A stretch of 64,000 bases of DNA from an uncultured bacterium (lineage in GTDB: Bacteria; Bacillota_I; Bacilli_A; RF39; UBA660), in NCBI GenBank assembly GCA_949296705.1, contig CASFOW010000042.1:25096-89095 (forward strand). Direction: 5' to 3'. This document shows positions 5,119-27,574 of the stretch, piece by piece; positions within the stretch are counted from its first letter, which is position 1; the number at the start of each line of letters is the position of its first letter. Made by a program: the position numbers and the translations under genes. The notes under the pieces were generated by a model that was given only the letters and a program-made list of their open reading frames with translations, made no database searches and had not been told where the DNA came from.

Positions 5119-5958
5119 TTACTCTGTTGGTAATGGTGCGGGATTTTCTAAATCCAAATCAGTAAACTCAGTTACTTCGTTAATAAAGTCACGTAATGTT
5201 TCACTAGCAATACTTACCTCACCTGGTTCTTCTTTTAGTGATTCATTCGTTGGTACTGGGATAATAGCAACTTCATAAGTACGTAAATATCCAGCCTTTC
5301 TTAATAGAATATGATATTCTTCTGGTAAAGCGAAGATAATTTGTGATGGTGTTTTAACGTTTTCTAAGTCTTCGAATACATCATCACCATTTGAATCTAA
5401 TACCGCAAGAATTTTTACATTCTTTAATAGTTTACCAACCATAATTTTATCTTCAGTATCTGCGGTAATATTTTCTTCATCTACTTTATTGGTTGCTTTA
5501 ATATAGATATCAATATAGTTTCCAGGATAGATCTTGTTACCATAAGTTGTTTCCGTTGTAACGGCTAAGTTCATTAAGACATAATCATCTGGATAGTCAT
5601 ATAGTATTGAATCTGGCAACTCTGATTGGGTAACTACTGCTCTTTGATAGAATAAGCTACCTTGTGGGATTGTGCAATCTGCATTAACATAGTAATTAAT
5701 AATTTTACTAGTGTCAGTAATAACATCTCCCTGTACCATAGCCATTGGTACATCCACGATACCAACCATATCGCTAGTAATTCTTGTTCTAGAAGAAATA
5801 TCTACTAAGGCGTAAGGTACACTAGTTGGATTGGTTTTTTGACTAATTCTGTAATTGTAGAAAAAATACAAGACGACAATTGCGATAACAGTCAAGATTA
5901 TCGTAACTGTATTTTTGTTTGTTAAGAACTTCTTTACTCTGGTTCCTACTCCATTCAT
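5119..5958 (-). CDS. cpaB: CpaB/RcpC-like Flp pilus assembly protein
   Basis: N-terminal TM anchor (TVTIILTVIAIVVLYFFY) followed by a region resembling a SAF domain (ALVDISSRTRITSDMVGIVDVPMAMVQGDVI). It sits immediately upstream of cpaF, as in Tad loci. Confidence 0.55.
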   Translation of the reverse strand: MNGVGTRVKKFLTNKNTVTIILTVIAIVVLYFFYNYRISQKTNPTSVPYALVDISSRTRITSDMVGIVDVPMAMVQGDVITDTSKIINYYVNADCTIPQGSLFYQRAVVTQSELPDSILYDYPDDYVLMNLAVTTETTYGNKIYPGNYIDIYIKATNKVDEENITADTEDKIMVGKLLKNVKILAVLDSNGDDVFEDLENVKTPSQIIFALPEEYHILLRKAGYLRTYEVAIIPVPTNESLKEEPGEVSIASETLRDFINEVTEFTDLDLENPAPLPTE

Positions 5959-5970
5959 TATTTTCCCCTC

Positions 5971-6399
5971 CTACTCAACTTCTTCAATCTTTCTTTTTTC
6001 ATTATATTTTGTTTCTAATATACCATCAATCGTCGTTACGATATCGAAATCTTCGCCAACAAAAGAGGCAACTGTTGTCGTTCCTACTTGGATACTTGCT
6101 TTTGGTGGTGTTTCATTGAAGTCAATAATCTTGATTCGATAGGTAGAAGATGCAGAAACGCTGTCTGCAAATCTTCTAATAAAACTCTCTAAGAATTTTT
6201 CTCTATCTACTCGTATAATTCCACCGGATGTACGATAATATCCCCAATCGACGCCGTCAATCATTGCTGCTTCAGTTGTTTCTTTCAATAAGTAATAATC
6301 TAATTCGTTACCCGATTGATAGTTTTGAATTAAATTTACACAGGCTAGAGTTAATACTCCTAAGATTATAATTCCTGTAATGATCATTCCTTTACTCAT
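5971..6399 (-). CDS. Small membrane-anchored protein, possible minor pilin/pseudopilin
   Basis: 142 aa, N-terminus MSKG/MIITGIIILGVLTLA with one hydrophobic helix then a soluble domain. Context is between the cysteine-rich protein and cpaB. Confidence 0.35.
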   Translation of the reverse strand: MSKGMIITGIIILGVLTLACVNLIQNYQSGNELDYYLLKETTEAAMIDGVDWGYYRTSGGIIRVDREKFLESFIRRFADSVSASSTYRIKIIDFNETPPKASIQVGTTTVASFVGEDFDIVTTIDGILETKYNEKRKIEEVE

Positions 6400-22616: not shown

Positions 22617-24074
22617 TTATAACGGTTTTCCACACATGAAACATTTAAGAGAACCATTTTTTATTTTAGCACCGCAATGGGGACAAGTAATATATTCACT
22701 TTGTTCGCCTGATAGATTATTTGTTGGTTGGGTAGGAATATTATTCGTGATAGGTGGTATTTCTGATTGAAATGGAGGTATTGCAGTATTAGAATCAGTT
22801 GCTGGGAATGACATAGCGGGAATTTCTTTTTCTTCAATTTTAATTGCTTCTATTGGTTGTGGTGAAGAAAAATCGGTTAAAGGATTTAGCGTAGTTTCAT
22901 TATCTATCATCGATGGATTAGTTGAATTAGACATTATAGAATTTCCAATAGAATTTTCTACTGGTACTGATTCTTGTTGGATAATCGGAATTCCAAATTG
23001 CATCATATTAGAAGTTATTGATTCTGCATTCTCAAATGGAACATTTTCGTTTGACAATGATGAACTAGTAGCCGGAGTAATAGTAGAGCCAGTAGTATTG
23101 ATTACATCTTTATTTTGATCCAATAAATTTTGAAGATTAATATCATTGGCTGGGTGCGAATTTTCATTGATTGGTGAAGTATTTATTTGCTGAGCAGAAT
23201 TTTCTGTGTTATTTTCTAATGGATTAGGTTCCTGTTGAATTGCTGGAATTCCAATTTCTGGCATATTAAAAGCTGACGATTCTTGATTATTAGTTACCAT
23301 TTGTGCATCCTGAGTGGTGGTAATTGATTCTTGTGAAGATCCACTATCTGTTGCCTTTTGAGGAGTTGTTTCAATAAACTGTACATCGGCCAACAAATCT
23401 ATTCCATTGTTTTGTGATTTAGTATTTAATTCTTGTTGTTGAGAAGCATCTACTCTAAAGTCAGCTAAATTAGGTTTTTGAACTTTTTTCTTTCCTTCAA
23501 TATTGACCAACGTCTTTTGATAATCTTTCTGATAGACTCCGCCACCTAATGACATTTCTACCTTTTTCCGTTCTTGAAGTGGTTGAGCAGGCTTGTTAAT
23601 TGGATCTTCGTTACTTTCTTCGATAACTGGCAAATCTTTAGCTACTGATTTCCCAGACATAGCTTCAGAGTTAATTCCTATGTATTCGCTACTACCAAAA
23701 CCTAAAATTGGAATAAAAATTAGTGGAAAAAGTAACATTCCCAATATGAAAAGCGACGGTTTTCGAAAGGCTTTTCCTAATGCAACTATCACTTGGAAAT
23801 AAAAAATAAGATTAATAATAGGAATAAGTAACAATAATATGTAAATTTTTGGCTTATTGATAATTTCTAACAATACCCATAAATTATAAAAAGGTATATA
23901 AGCAGCAATACCAGAACGATTAGCCTTTTTAAATATTTTCATTAAAGCAATTAAGGTAATGATAAATAAGATAATTAATATTCCTACTCCAATCATAATT
24001 GGCACAATAAATTCATTTATCTTGGTCTCATACGTTGTGGGAAAGTCCTCATACAAGGTATCTAGTATAAACAT
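22617..24074 (-). CDS. Membrane protein with low-complexity linker, internal repeat and C-terminal zinc-ribbon
   Basis: N-terminus of about 130 aa with 3-4 TM helices. N/S/T/Q-rich region containing two related repeats (NMPEIGIPAIQQEPNPLEN / MMQFGIPIIQQESVPVEN). C-terminus CPHCGAKIKNGSLKCFMCGKPL. Confidence 0.6.
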   Translation of the reverse strand: MFILDTLYEDFPTTYETKINEFIVPIMIGVGILIILFIITLIALMKIFKKANRSGIAAYIPFYNLWVLLEIINKPKIYILLLLIPIINLIFYFQVIVALGKAFRKPSLFILGMLLFPLIFIPILGFGSSEYIGINSEAMSGKSVAKDLPVIEESNEDPINKPAQPLQERKKVEMSLGGGVYQKDYQKTLVNIEGKKKVQKPNLADFRVDASQQQELNTKSQNNGIDLLADVQFIETTPQKATDSGSSQESITTTQDAQMVTNNQESSAFNMPEIGIPAIQQEPNPLENNTENSAQQINTSPINENSHPANDINLQNLLDQNKDVINTTGSTITPATSSSLSNENVPFENAESITSNMMQFGIPIIQQESVPVENSIGNSIMSNSTNPSMIDNETTLNPLTDFSSPQPIEAIKIEEKEIPAMSFPATDSNTAIPPFQSEIPPITNNIPTQPTNNLSGEQSEYITCPHCGAKIKNGSLKCFMCGKPL

Positions 24075-24227: not shown

Positions 24228-24257
24228 TAGAAAAAAACCCTTACGGAATAAGGGTTG
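24228..24257 (-). terminator. Rho-independent terminator after the tRNA-Asn/tRNA-Glu unit
   Basis: Minus strand: AACCCTTA-TTCCG-TAAGGGTT followed by TTTTTTCTATTTT. Confidence 0.6.
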
Positions 24258-24266
24258 AGTAACATA

Positions 24267-24343
24267 TGGTGACCAGTACGGGATTCGGACCCGTGAATGC
24301 CGCCGTGAAAGGGCGGTGTGTTAAGCCACTTCACCAACTGGCC
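24267..24343 (-). tRNA. tRNA-Glu (TTC)
   Basis: Anticodon stem-loop CCGCC-CTTTCAC-GGCGG, T-loop TCCGAAT, acceptor GGCCAGT/ACTGGTC, encoded CCA. Confidence 0.85.
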
Positions 24344-24349
24344 AAAAGA

Positions 24350-24425
24350 TGGCGCCTGATGTAGGACTCGGACCTACGACCTATCGGTTAACAGCCGAGT
24401 GCTCTACCAACTGAGCTAATCAGGC
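24350..24425 (-). tRNA. tRNA-Asn (GTT)
   Basis: Acceptor GCCTGAT/ATCAGGC, D-arm GCTCAGTTGGTAGAGC, anticodon loop CTGTTAA, encoded CCA. One mismatch at the top of the anticodon stem. Confidence 0.8.
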
Positions 24426-24454
24426 ACATGAATAATTTCATAAAGCCATTTCAT

Positions 24455-24481
24455 TATATAATACAATTTTTACTTTGGCAA
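24455..24481 (-). promoter_or_regulatory. Putative sigma-A promoter for the tRNA-Asn/tRNA-Glu unit
   Basis: Minus strand TTGCCA-N17-TATAAT, about 25 nt upstream of tRNA-Asn. Confidence 0.45.
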
Positions 24482-24570
24482 TACTTTTTTTCAAAAATCT
24501 TTATTTTATTTTCACTTTCTGGTAAATTAGTGGGAAAACCAGAACGGTTTTCCACATAATTTCCCTATTT

Positions 24571-25947
24571 TTAGAAATCACAGTTACCTGGAGTTCTTGG
24601 ATACGGAATAACATCTCGAATATTTTCTACTCCTGTTAAGTAAATCAATAAGCGTTCAAATCCCATTCCAAATCCCGAATGTACGCAACCTCCAAAACGG
24701 CGTAAATTCAAATACCATTCCATTCCTTCAATAGGAACGTGCATTTCTTTCATTCTGGCAACTAATTTATCATAATCTTCTTCTCTTTGACTGCCTCCCA
24801 TTAGTTCCCCAGCGCCTGGTACTTCTAAGTCTACGGCAGCTACAGTTTTTCCATCTGAATTTTGTTTCATATAAAATGCCTTAATATCCTTTGGCCAATC
24901 TGTAATAAAGACTGGACCATCAAAATACTCGGTAATATATTTTTCATGTTCTTTGGCAATATCTTCCCCATATTCTGGCGCAAACTCCCATTTTACATCA
25001 GCTTTTTTCAAAATAGTGATCACATCCTCGTGACGAATTCTTGTGAATTTACTATTTACTAGCTTCGTCAATTTCTCAATTAATCCCTTTTCTACATATT
25101 GATCACAGAAAGCCATTTCCTCTTTGGCATGTTCTAACACATATTTTACTATAAATTTCAACATATCTTCTTCTACATCCATCAACTCTTCAAGATCACA
25201 GAATGCCATTTCTGGTTCAATCATCCAAAATTCACTAGCATGGGTTTTAGTATTAGAATTTTCAGCTCGGAAAGTTGGACCAAAAGTATATATGTTTCTG
25301 AATGCTAAAGCAAAAGTTTCTCCTTGTAGTTGGCCAGAAACAGTAAGTGATGCGGGTTTGCCAAAGAAATCTTTACTATAGTCTACTTTACCTGTTTCGG
25401 CCACCTTTTCTAAATCTAAGGTTGTTACTTGAAACATTTCTCCAGCACCCTCACAATCACTTGCGGTAATTAGTGGTGCATGTAAATACACAAATCCTTT
25501 TTCTTGAAAATAAGTATGAATTGCCATTGCCGCAACACTTCTAATTCTAAATACAGCTTGAAACAAGTTAGCTCGGGGGCGAAGATAGCCTATTTCCCGC
25601 AAAAATTCACGAGAGTGTTGCTTTGGCTGTAGTGGATAATCATCACTACAATCTCCTTCTAACGTTACTTCTTTGGCTTTAATTTCATATTGTTGACCTT
25701 TACCCTCCGATTTTACTAATTTTCCTACTACGCGAATCGCGCTGCCATGCTTAAGGGATTCTATCTTTTCATAGTCTTTACTATTTTCTTTATCATATAC
25801 AATTTGGATATGGGTAAAACATGTCCCATCAGAAAAGTCAATAAACCCAAATTCTTTCTGCTTACGATGCCTTCTTATCCATCCTTTAATTTCTACCTCT
25901 TTGTCTAGATATGTTTCTACTTTGTCATATAATTCTCTTAATGTCAT
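24571..25947 (-). CDS. asnS: Asparagine--tRNA ligase
   Basis: 458 aa. N-terminal OB anticodon-binding domain, then a class II core with FRAE, GxGxER-type (GFERL) and other AsnRS-typical segments (HAPLITASDCEGAGEMF). Confidence 0.9.
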   Translation of the reverse strand: MTLRELYDKVETYLDKEVEIKGWIRRHRKQKEFGFIDFSDGTCFTHIQIVYDKENSKDYEKIESLKHGSAIRVVGKLVKSEGKGQQYEIKAKEVTLEGDCSDDYPLQPKQHSREFLREIGYLRPRANLFQAVFRIRSVAAMAIHTYFQEKGFVYLHAPLITASDCEGAGEMFQVTTLDLEKVAETGKVDYSKDFFGKPASLTVSGQLQGETFALAFRNIYTFGPTFRAENSNTKTHASEFWMIEPEMAFCDLEELMDVEEDMLKFIVKYVLEHAKEEMAFCDQYVEKGLIEKLTKLVNSKFTRIRHEDVITILKKADVKWEFAPEYGEDIAKEHEKYITEYFDGPVFITDWPKDIKAFYMKQNSDGKTVAAVDLEVPGAGELMGGSQREEDYDKLVARMKEMHVPIEGMEWYLNLRRFGGCVHSGFGMGFERLLIYLTGVENIRDVIPYPRTPGNCDF

Positions 25948-26171
25948 TATTCTACCTCCTCAAAACGATATTTTTGCGACACTTGGGGATATTTTTTTGT
26001 ATCTACTAACGAATTAAATAACGAATAAGGTCTTACCCATACTTCATCAGTTCCTTCGTGAGTATAAACTACCATATCCTCCAGAGTTTCACTATGTTTA
26101 GCTATCGCTATTACTTTATGCGTTGTTCCTTTAAAATGTCGATAATAACTTCCTACTTTAATTTTTCTCAT
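25947..26171 (-). CDS. DUF1653-family small protein
   Basis: YRHFKG...HSETLEDMVVY...WVRP pattern. Stop/start overlap with asnS. Confidence 0.6.
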   Translation of the reverse strand: MRKIKVGSYYRHFKGTTHKVIAIAKHSETLEDMVVYTHEGTDEVWVRPYSLFNSLVDTKKYPQVSQKYRFEEVE

Positions 26172-26186
26172 CTTTATTCTCCTTCT

Positions 26187-26783
26187 TTATTTTTTAAGAC
26201 ATAACGGCTCTTTTTCAGGCAGTTTAGTCATTATGCTATTTCTATTTATCATATTTAAAAATTTGATAATTTCTTCTGGTTTGATAAACATACTCATTCC
26301 ATTATATAAGGGATGGAATACTAGTAATTCACTTTTTAGCAATTCTTTATCGATAATTAATTCCACTTGTCGAGCATTGTCATACAAAAGATTAAATATC
26401 GAAATATTGCCAGGATAGGTATTTAAAAGATAATATAGTTCCTCCTCGGAAATAAATTCAAGTTTAGTACTAACTAAGACATCTTTTAATTTTTTTAAGT
26501 CTACTTGTTTACTTTGGTCAGTGATAATCAAAAACTTTCGATGCTTTCCTTTTCGCTCATGCACAGCTAAGTTTTTACAAATTGTATAATTTTTTACATA
26601 GCTACAAAAACGTTGGTAGTAATTTTTTGATTCATCACACCCTAATACTTCTGGGTGCTTAAAGCAATACTCATAGAAAATGTTTTTTTGTTCTAAAAAA
26701 TCACAGAATAATTGAGCTTTTTTAATTTTTTCCCAAGAACTCTTATTCGTCAGATTATCCATAATCACGTGAGAATCTACCAT
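26187..26783 (-). CDS. YbaK/ProX-like aminoacyl-tRNA trans-editing (deacylase) domain protein
   Basis: C-terminal half FLIITDQSKQVDLKKLKDVL...YPGNISIFNLLYD...ELIIDKELLKSELLVFHP...MSMFIKPEEIIKFL aligns with E. coli YbaK LIMAVVPGDRRVNLKKLAAL...PGGVSPFGQ...VWLDTALLDHETVYV. N-terminal part is Cys-rich and unknown. Confidence 0.5.
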   Translation of the reverse strand: MVDSHVIMDNLTNKSSWEKIKKAQLFCDFLEQKNIFYEYCFKHPEVLGCDESKNYYQRFCSYVKNYTICKNLAVHERKGKHRKFLIITDQSKQVDLKKLKDVLVSTKLEFISEEELYYLLNTYPGNISIFNLLYDNARQVELIIDKELLKSELLVFHPLYNGMSMFIKPEEIIKFLNMINRNSIMTKLPEKEPLCLKK

Positions 26784-26892
26784 TTGCTCATATTTTCTCG
26801 TGATACGATATTGAATAATTTTTTGTTCACTTTCGTTTAATATTGGGTAAGGTCACTGCACTCATAAAATTTTCCTTCTTTCTTTTTCATCA

Positions 26893-27186
26893 TAAGTAAA
26901 AGACTAGTTCGCATCCAACACGTATTCAGATACGTATGGGACGAAACTAGTCTTCCGCGGTGCCACCCAATTTATCATAAACATTTCTGTTTGATTATGA
27001 TCCCTTTCGATTCTATTAAATCTAGTAATAAGATAACGGATTACTTCCGACTTACACTACTCTTTTGATTTCGCATAAGCAACTCCAAAGTGTTCTTCAT
27101 ATTGTTTTTATTGTTAGCTTCCACCATACCTAACTCGCTAGAATAAAAAAATCAATATTACTTTTCTTTATCTCAGTCGTTGTAGA
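26893..27186 (-). promoter_or_regulatory. T-box riboswitch leader, probable Asn (AAC) specifier, controlling the ybaK-like/DUF1653/asnS operon
   Basis: Minus strand carries the T-box sequence AAUUGGGUGGCACCGCGG (plus 26955..26973), followed by the terminator helix AAGACUAGUUUCG...CGAACUAGUCUUUU. A candidate specifier GAAGAACAC lies in the upstream stem I region. Promoter TTGACA-N17-TATATT sits at about 27190-27225. Confidence 0.6.
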
Positions 27187-27279
27187 AAATATATCATTTT
27201 TTATATTATATGTCAATCTTTTTTTGTTATTCATAAATTCTATTATAAGTTTAGTTTCTAGGAAAGCTATTTAGGAACC

Positions 27280-27341: not shown

Positions 27342-27418
<77 letters not shown>

Positions 27419-27574
27419 ATTTAAAAATTGTTGACTGTTACTATTTTACACTAACTTACTGTTCTCGCGCAAGCCTTTTTTGATTTTTTTTCAACTAATT
27501 CACAAGAACGTTTTTATTATATATCAAATTATTTTGAACGTCAACATTTTTTAATATCTTTTATAATATTTTAA

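Follow-up and report, generated by a model that had tools for sequence, protein, structure and literature searches.

How is the first gene of an operon translated when the Shine-Dalgarno (SD) sequence ahead of it serves a start codon in another reading frame? The question is raised by a locus in a 64,000-nucleotide (nt) stretch of DNA from an uncultured bacterium (hereafter, the window), in which all operon features are read on the (-) strand. The operon is asparagine-responsive: a T-box leader RNA with an AAC specifier precedes a gene for a protein of the YbaK/ProX fold, a DUF1653 gene, and asnS, which encodes asparaginyl-tRNA synthetase (AsnRS). The answer that we favor, with appreciable reserve, is that asparagine starvation would trigger a programmed +1 frameshift at a 'hungry codon', stacked on the asparagine T-box, and that this shift would gate the synthesis of a probable aminoacyl-tRNA(Asn) deacylase. 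The features concerned are, in the order of transcription:

27188..27216, minus strand: sigma-70-type promoter of the T-box operon, TTGACA-17-TATATT with a TG extension (11/12 matches), 5 nt upstream of the Rfam T-box start.
26934..27183, minus strand: T-box leader RNA (RF00230, full model), with the specifier AAC at 27094-27092, then A27091.
26970-26955, minus strand: T-box sequence UUGGGUGGCACCGCGG, with UGGC at 26965-26962.
~26894..26955, minus strand: intrinsic terminator of the T-box, its 5' arm overlapping the antiterminator 3' strand; helix AAGACUAGUUUCG...CGAACUAGUCUU and a U run.
26871..26880, minus strand: SD sequence AAGAAGGAAA, serving ATG 26865.
26827..26865, minus strand: zero-frame short open reading frame (ORF) MSAVTLPNIKRK of 12 codons, with the stop codon TGA at 26829-26827; proposed true start of the YbaK-like gene.
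26841..26850, minus strand: proposed +1 frameshift site UUA CCC|A AU A, with UUA in the exit (E) site (26850-48), CCC in the peptidyl (P) site (26847-45), and AAU in the aminoacyl (A) site (26844-42).
26187..26843, minus strand: +1-frame part of the YbaK/ProX-fold gene; frame open from 26852, called ATG at 26783, stop codon TAA at 26189-26187.
26783..26187, minus strand: the called YbaK-like ORF of 198 amino acids (aa), matching PF04073 (tRNA_edit).
25947..26171, minus strand: DUF1653 gene, 74 aa (E value 1e-19), with a strong SD sequence and a 1-nt overlap (TAATG) with asnS.
24571..25947, minus strand: asnS, asparaginyl-tRNA synthetase, 458 aa (NF003037, TIGR00457, PF00152, PF01336).

An earlier note on this DNA, made from its letters alone, had taken the first gene of the operon to be the 198-aa ORF; that ORF is present, and its called start, ATG 26783, is probably not the true one. 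No SD sequence accompanies ATG 26783. A strong one, AAGAAGGAAA, lies right after the terminator and serves ATG 26865, 82 nt upstream of the called start, and this SD-ATG pair is present in every family member. In the window, ATG 26865 opens only MSAVTLPNIKRK followed by a stop codon, in the -1 frame relative to the YbaK-like ORF. In several of the related loci (L017-19, L021, L028, L030, L046, and L061), the SD-ATG (MSAV.LP....DY..LF) stands directly in frame with the gene, and the N-terminal motif MS.V.LP is common to the short ORF and these in-frame homologs. From these comparisons, the gene most likely begins 82 nt upstream of the called start and would need a +1 frameshift to be read to its end. 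The stretch in which both frames are open is narrow, the +1 frame being open from 26852 and the zero frame closing at 26827. A +1 shift at CCC|A within it yields a conceptual product of 225 aa, MSAVTLP-ILNESEQK... (complement(join(26187..26843, 26845..26865))), with the junction peptide MSAVTLPILNESEQK, and this product aligns gaplessly over the junction with the in-frame homologs. Reading UGA as Trp (genetic code 4) was considered as a way to join the short ORF with the gene and was dismissed, since the two lie in different frames and Trp is encoded by UGG in asnS.

The same arrangement recurs among relatives in two independent forms. In group A, TTA CCC AAT is identical in 11 lineages (the window, L011-L016, L053, L004, L024, and L071), while group B (L054, L055, L058, and L039) reads ...GGG AAT TTT... 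at codon 5-6. Shifting by +1 at GGG|A in group B would give MLEVG-ILKELF..., colinear with the in-frame MYELG-MYDKLS..., and the in-frame relatives read CCT GTG, CCA TTA, TCC ATT, or GGA ATG at these places. In all 15 lineages that need a shift (15/15), the A-site codon is the asparagine codon AAU. Re-pairing in the P site appears possible from the sequence in both forms (CCC to CCA, and GGG to GGA); in the window, re-pairing on CCA brings in AUA (26843-41) as the codon to be read next. No Pro codon is rarer than CCC, and no Gly codon rarer than GGG, in the genes of the window, where CCC makes up 6.5% of Pro codons and GGG 8.2% of Gly codons. Past the Asn codon, the zero-frame tail runs for 2-6 codons and is conserved in neither sequence nor length. 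In a neighbor-joining tree, group A appears to have made the transition at least twice, and group B lies at the base of an in-frame clade. Among species-level genomes, 12/51 need the shift. The subgroup of the window (with L011-L013) also carries a 12-residue insertion, SEQKIIQYRITR, in the N-terminal extension (26784-26843) relative to other group A members and in-frame relatives.

In general terms, the proposed mechanism can be divided into three steps. (i) Transcription: by the established mechanism of the T-box family, uncharged tRNA-Asn(GUU) would stabilize the antiterminator and RNA polymerase would pass the terminator. (ii) Initiation and pausing: translation of the first gene would start at the SD-served ATG 26865 and, under normal decoding, end in a peptide of 12 residues and a stop; when Asn-tRNA(Asn) is scarce, the ribosome would pause with its A site unfilled at AAU and peptidyl-tRNA(Pro) sitting on the rare CCC. 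(iii) Shift: tRNA(Pro) would re-pair one base on, from CCC to CCA, and translation in the +1 frame would yield the 225-aa protein; in group B, tRNA(Gly) would likewise re-pair from GGG to GGA. That the A site is slow under asparagine limitation is suggested by the asparagine T-box context. The YbaK-like protein would then be doubly gated by asparagine supply, at transcription by the T-box and at translation by the hungry Asn codon, while asnS and the DUF1653 gene, having their own ribosome-binding sites, would need the T-box signal only. The editing-like protein would appear only on deeper starvation and would be unwelcome when Asn-tRNA(Asn) is plentiful.

The upstream arm of this scheme was already visible in the earlier note, which had proposed a minus-strand T-box, an Asn specifier, and a terminator helix overlapping the T-box; all three are borne out. 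The leader matches RF00230 from 27183 to 26934 over model positions 1-219, at 130.8 bits against a gathering score of 93 (E value 8.8e-29). The stretch AUGAAGAACAC aligns to the Rfam consensus GAA-a-uuc-a as GAA-G-AAC-A, with AAC on the specifier columns and a purine next to it; the specifier is therefore AAC (Asn), and GAA-N-AAC-purine is found in all aligned leaders with Stem I (55/55). It is the covariance-model alignment and these 55 homologous leaders that carry the assignment, not single-sequence folding, in which the minimum-free-energy fold of Stem I failed to reproduce the specifier loop (z = -0.1). UGGC of the T-box complements the GCCA 3' end of the local tRNA-Asn, its C pairing with G73, and, judged by sequence, the local tRNA-Asn(GTT) is the cognate ligand. 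The 126-nt 3' segment of the leader that holds the terminator (27010-26885) folds at -39.4 kcal/mol with z = -4.2, and 0/200 shuffles fold as well. The antiterminator, as aligned by the RF00230 model, competes with the terminator helix AAGACUAGUUUCG...CGAACUAGUCUU, which is kept together with UUUACUU in all aligned leaders. We also considered a long-range pairing of ACCCAAU at the shift site (26842-26848) with AUUGGGU of the T-box (26965-26971, ~120 nt upstream) and rejected it as a general element, as it is absent in group B (GGGAAUU) and in the in-frame relatives; the complementarity is probably a coincidence.

Asparagine T-boxes as such have precedents. One over a tRNA-dependent transamidation operon of Clostridium acetobutylicum was reportedly described by Saad et al. 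in 2012 (J Biol Chem). In Clostridioides difficile, asnS (CD2245) is listed as T-box controlled (PMC11477304). The leader studied here resembles these known T-boxes of asparagine supply (asnS and others) in its RNA family, its AAC specifier, the pairing of UGGN to the tRNA 3' end, and the terminator/antiterminator switch. It differs in that the first gene behind the switch is always YbaK-fold, whatever comes next.

What, then, is the protein placed behind these two gates? The 198-aa ORF, whose numbering is used for all residues below, matches PF04073 at residues 63-175 with 75 bits against a gathering score of 25.5 (E value 7e-21). An AlphaFold (AF2) model built with 20 homologs as input reached a mean predicted local distance difference test (pLDDT) score of 84.6, and Foldseek ranked its relatives in the order Atu3699 (1vki), C. 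crescentus ProXp-ala (1vjf/5vxb), human ProX (8huz), then YbaK (1dbx). Against 1vki, 1vjf, and 8huz, E values ranged from 2e-13 to 1e-10 and target-normalized template modeling (TM) scores from 0.77 to 0.83, over 165-174 aligned columns. A profile of the family searched against the PDB gave the same leading relatives: Atu3699 (E value 1.8e-18), ProXp-ala (5e-17), and human ProX (6e-10). The assignment to the YbaK/ProX fold in the earlier note thus stands, save that it had been confined to the C-terminal half: in the model, the fold spans the whole protein from about residue 22. The Cys-rich N-terminal half, which had been left as unexplained, is mostly the normal first part of the fold, consisting of its first helix-strand-helix and an N-terminal helical extension.

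The residues point in the same direction. K70, P124-G125-N126-[VI]-S128-x-F130, and F156-H157-P158 are invariant in 20/20 aligned members, and K70 aligns with K45 of C. crescentus ProXp-ala, the lysine that is strictly conserved and serves to position A76. Among the cysteines, C27 and C49 never vary and C40 is kept in 90% of members; all lie inside the fold and are specific to the YbaK-like family, while the invariant H43 matches the general His of the YbaK fold. C27, C40, H43, and C49 may form a metal or a redox site, or may simply pack the core. The protein fits neither characterized subgroup: the position of R80 of ProXp-ala, which reads G72, is held by an invariant K107 and that of K50 by H, Q, or R, and the YbaK/EbsC equivalog TIGR00011 scores 17.2 bits against a cutoff of 153.25. 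The local tRNA-Asn has G1:C72 in place of the C1:G72 read in tRNA(Pro) by ProXp-ala, and the controlling T-box is for Asn, not Pro. The fold, the conserved lysine of the active site, and the gene neighborhood make the protein a probable free-standing aminoacyl-tRNA deacylase acting on tRNA(Asn). It shares with ProXp-ala, ProX, and YbaK, the free-standing aminoacyl-tRNA(Pro) deacylases of the INS superfamily, the fold, the lysine (K70 = K45), the substrate loop, and the His-Pro motif; it differs in its low identity (~25%), greater length, N-terminal helix, C27/C40/C49, and link to Asn instead of Pro.

AsnRS has no editing domain. We know of no described trans-editing factor for tRNA(Asn), and literature searches also gave none. 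The most plausible role is that the deacylase would clear mischarged tRNA(Asn), such as Asp-tRNA(Asn), as free tRNA(Asn) accumulates in asparagine starvation; free tRNA(Asn) and an idle AsnRS would raise the risk of mischarging, for instance of Asp-tRNA(Asn) being made by a non-discriminating AspRS. An editing protein behind a riboswitch has a precedent: a B3/4 editing-domain-like gene related to CtdA sits behind a guanidine-I riboswitch (PMC11477304). CtdA, a canavanyl-tRNA(Arg) deacylase, is likewise a free-standing tRNA-editing protein whose gene lies behind a riboswitch fitting its substrate chemistry (PMC11477304); it differs in its B3/B4 fold, in the riboswitch, and in the amino acid.

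We searched for the family exhaustively with a profile among 1.84 billion representative proteins and with a word index among 5.8 billion. The family is small: the profile search yielded 19 clusters at E<=1e-30, below which scores merge into general ProX-like proteins, and the word-indexed search 32 matches. Scanning a single genome for each species turned up the family in 52 of them, all metagenome-assembled genomes of uncultured gut Bacilli/'Tenericutes', for instance Candidatus Scybalousia, Onthousia, and Faecimonas. Wherever a species-level genome holds upstream DNA (51/51), the YbaK-like gene follows the T-box motif GGGUGGNACCGCG at a distance of 50-190 nt. Rfam searches of eight loci gave seven T-boxes above the gathering score (117.6-134.7 bits), one per locus holding upstream DNA and representing four distinct lineages; three further T-boxes were found in L069, L071, and L082, and the relatives overall score 117-136 bits. 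By these comparisons, the asparagine T-box and the YbaK-like gene form the constant unit. What follows the gene varies:

asnS directly: 22/51 genomes.
DUF1653-asnS: 10/51 genomes.
asnB-asnS: 4/51 genomes.
gatC-gatA-gatB-aspS, once with asnS: 2/51 genomes.
None of these arrangements: 13/51 genomes.

Where present, the partners all serve the supply of Asn-tRNA(Asn), directly (AsnRS), indirectly (GatCAB and AspRS), or through biosynthesis (AsnB, whose product has Asn_synthase and GATase domains). The earlier note's suggestion of a trans-editing factor co-regulated with AsnRS holds in its regulatory half, the Asn T-box link being constant in 51/51 genomes, and the trans-editing role remains one suggested by fold and context; its proposal that the operon structure be checked for conservation likewise has a divided outcome, the T-box and YbaK-like gene being constant and DUF1653-asnS following in just 10/51. 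The outlier L082 (2189-3031) encodes a protein of 190 aa that is 33% identical, from a solitary gene behind an AAC T-box. The Asn T-box of L032 (3063-5649), L037, and L068 is directly preceded by hisS and by an aspS of 438 aa in which Pfam matches no GAD domain. We take this short aspS to be archaeal-type. Archaeal-type AspRS in bacteria is often non-discriminating, which would fit a role in clearing Asp-tRNA(Asn).

Several observations weigh against an asparagine-triggered frameshift onto a deacylase gene. Every functional step is drawn from sequence comparison, fold, and context in uncultured organisms. Neither an SD-like stimulator of the prfB type just upstream of the shift site (which is preceded by GUGACC UUA) nor a stable RNA structure or alternative hairpins around it were found (folding z = 0.3). 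In-frame CCC-AAT pairs are not avoided in the genes of the window (2 observed against 1.7 expected), and CCC-AAT alone may not be very shifty. AAT makes up 82% of the Asn codons in the window, so that AAT in place of AAC at the site is hardly informative. An enrichment of synonymous differences in the bridging region, seen in the YbaK frame relative to the other frames (15/49 against 6/42 and 8/42; and 25/55 against 13/52 and 18/57), speaks for the frameshift but is modest and comes from few and related sequences. L022 and L031 have short N-termini, and an internally started protein could still fold. On the protein side, the distant L082 carries Arg at the position of the catalytic Lys (CRNI for CKNL), and in L008, L045, and L047 the YbaK-like gene heads a gatCAB-aspS operon, where an Asp-tRNA(Asn) deacylase would be wasteful and would seem to oppose that pathway; this position is the main difficulty for the Asp-tRNA(Asn) idea. 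From the last two points one could argue that the YbaK-fold protein is non-hydrolytic, either a helper that binds tRNA(Asn), for example as a chaperone or to deliver it to AsnRS or the GatCAB transamidosome, or a protein with a non-tRNA substrate, and the GXXXP-type loop, which reads PGN[VI]SxF where characterized members have PGSVTAF, and the family-specific invariant C27 and C49, which have no known role, lean the same way. We hold this to be rather unlikely: the active-site Lys, the loop, and the His-Pro motif are invariant among the 20 aligned members, and the characterized single-domain members of the superfamily are all deacylases (PMC10164551).

The frameshift itself could be dispensed with if this were an ordinary T-box operon with a translated 12-codon leader ORF, synthesis of the YbaK-like protein beginning independently at an internal codon, be it ATG 26783 or another, perhaps through re-initiation. 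Gene callers do choose internal starts (P0001-P0007), L011 and L024 have a YbaK-frame ATG right after the shift site, and the short N-termini of L022 and L031 are in keeping with such starts. However, internal starts lack an SD sequence at a usable distance, whereas DUF1653 and asnS in the same operon each have a strong one of their own; ahead of the internal start, the YbaK frame stays open, and it is homologous to and gaplessly colinear with the in-frame N-termini; the A2 subgroup has no in-frame ATG for ~25 codons; the zero-frame tail is not maintained; and the out-of-frame design arose at two codons, CCC and GGG, with AAU next both times. Internal initiation is on these grounds clearly unlikely. 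That the frame break is an assembly or sequencing artifact, or marks a pseudogene, we regard as highly improbable. The sequences all come from metagenome assemblies, and L039 of group B (5880-6120) has a second break at an A8 run inside its N-terminal helix that looks like assembly error or decay; yet unrelated studies and assemblers arrived at the 3-nt homopolymer site in 15 lineages, runs of three bases are not prone to error, and the downstream ORF is intact and conserved in all 15. More weight attaches, within what is still a low probability, to a shift that occurs without asparagine sensing. The frameshift could be constitutive, either holding the protein at a low fixed fraction relative to AsnRS ('set ratio') or compensating an old 1-nt insertion ('corrective'). 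Both sites resemble 1-base insertions in CC/GG runs (TTA CCA ATA to TTA CCC AAT A, and GGA ATG to GGG AAT T), 'xxA AUx' is common in AT-rich genes, which by our estimate gives a ~5-10% chance of an Asn A-site codon per event, and CCC alone is +1 shift-prone in Listeria phages of a low-GC host (PMC5009743). Set against this, two independent sites have an Asn A-site codon in an operon whose only other known input is the charging of tRNA-Asn, the sites persist through divergence down to 54% protein identity, and slow A-site decoding is a general requirement for, and driver of, +1 shifts (PMC5009743).

An asparagine-responsive shift would have relatives among known recoding systems. As in prfB (release factor 2), a short 5' zero-frame ORF precedes a functional protein encoded in +1, the tRNA in the P site slips to pair one base further on, efficiency is set by the slowness of A-site decoding, and the shift is both sensor and effector (PMC5009743). 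Unlike in prfB, the A site here holds the sense codon AAU in place of a stop, Asn-tRNA(Asn) and not a release factor is proposed to be limiting, no SD-like stimulator is present, and the codon is read by something other than the gene's own product. The slip of a P-site tRNA into the +1 frame during the wait for a scarce aminoacyl-tRNA is shared with the hungry-codon shifts of Gallant and colleagues, with yeast Ty1 (CUU_AGG_C), and with the Listeria phages PSA, A118, and A500, in which the rare CCC serves as the P-site codon (PMC5009743). The hungry-codon shifts, however, were laboratory observations, and the Ty1 and phage sites are set-ratio and not tied to the regulon of the cognate amino acid. 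Similarly, leader-peptide attenuation (trp, his, pheL) uses a very short 5' ORF to sense charged tRNA through pausing at the operon's own amino-acid codons; here there would be a single Asn codon, no alternative hairpins, and a change of frame as the output, transcription being already controlled by the T-box.

The remainder of the locus surrounds the operon with tRNA genes:

27342-27418, minus strand: tRNA-Ile(GAT), just upstream of the T-box operon, with its own promoter TTGACG-17-TATAAT at 27516-27544.
24533..24553 (region 24521-24565), minus strand: G+C-rich hairpin 3' of asnS, core GGAAAACC-GUUCU-GGUUUUCC, without a proper U tract.
24453..24481, minus strand: promoter-like site ahead of the tRNA genes, TTGCCA-17-TATAAT (11/12 matches).
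24350..24425, minus strand: tRNA-Asn (GTT), with G1:C72 and discriminator G73.
24267..24343, minus strand: tRNA-Glu (TTC), from tRNA gene detection.
24236..24256, minus strand: intrinsic terminator after the tRNA pair, a 9-bp stem then TTTTTCTATT.

Both the operon order (YbaK-like, DUF1653, AsnRS) and a TTGCCA-N17-TATAAT promoter followed by the two tRNA genes had been anticipated by the earlier note, and both were recovered. The asnS assignment is given by the equivalogs NF003037 (624.8 bits, cutoff 414) and TIGR00457 (585.2 bits, cutoff 342.6). The 1-base overlap of DUF1653 and asnS suggests translational coupling, and the sole PDB relative of the DUF1653 protein is the uncharacterized 3be3. 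The hairpin after asnS was not called by the terminator scan; it may be a weak terminator or a processing site, and read-through into the tRNA genes may occur. Read-through of T-box-dependent transcripts into tRNA-Asn and tRNA-Glu would tie the synthesis of tRNA-Asn to its own charging state. None of gatCAB, aspS, and asnB was found within the 64-kb window. The presence of tRNA-Asn (one or two copies) and tRNA-Glu after asnS, and of tRNA-Ile upstream, is kept only in the clade of the window. Among the loci compared (L011, L012, L014, L015, L024, L030, L046, L053, and L061), most have two tandem copies of tRNA-Asn after asnS where the window has one, and L016 has none there. In this clade (L004, L012, L015, L046, and L061), the order tRNA-Ile, T-box operon, tRNA-Asn, tRNA-Glu, DUF5684 protein, tRNA-Ser is syntenic. 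The DUF5684 protein of the window (22617-24074, minus strand; 485 aa) has an N-terminal DUF5684 membrane domain, a low-complexity middle rich in Asn, Gln, Ser, and Pro, and a C-terminal zinc ribbon, and a DUF5684 protein occupies the equivalent position in the single relative examined (L004).

The T-box/asnS module is already textbook knowledge. In the literature searched, which did not cover the 2008 surveys of T-box regulons, we found no report of a YbaK-type gene in a T-box regulon, nor did the searches yield a report of frameshifting tied to a T-box operon. By sequence, what is new would be twofold: a branch of the INS superfamily tied to tRNA(Asn), and sensor-type +1 frameshifting that works at a sense codon. 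A 2016 review knew of no natural trans-frame protein made specifically under starvation at a hungry codon (PMC5009743). With less assurance than we give to the mechanism itself, and as a tentative proposal, CCC_AAU and GGG_AAU may be the first natural programmed +1 frameshift at a hungry sense codon that acts as a starvation sensor, serving a new tRNA(Asn)-dedicated member of the YbaK/ProX group; the T-box would read uncharged tRNA and the ribosome charged tRNA.

For the annotation of these genomes, the consequence is that gene callers mis-start the YbaK-like gene in about a quarter of those that carry it. If true, the asparagine-triggered frameshift would answer a question of recoding specialists, namely whether cells exploit hungry-codon frameshifting to make a starvation-specific protein, and the locus is a simple candidate: a 7-nt site in two independent versions, with a predicted efficiency that follows the supply of Asn-tRNA(Asn). 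For the organisms themselves, a YbaK-fold family always wired to an asparagine T-box points to an unrecognized quality-control or recycling step for tRNA(Asn) in asparagine starvation.

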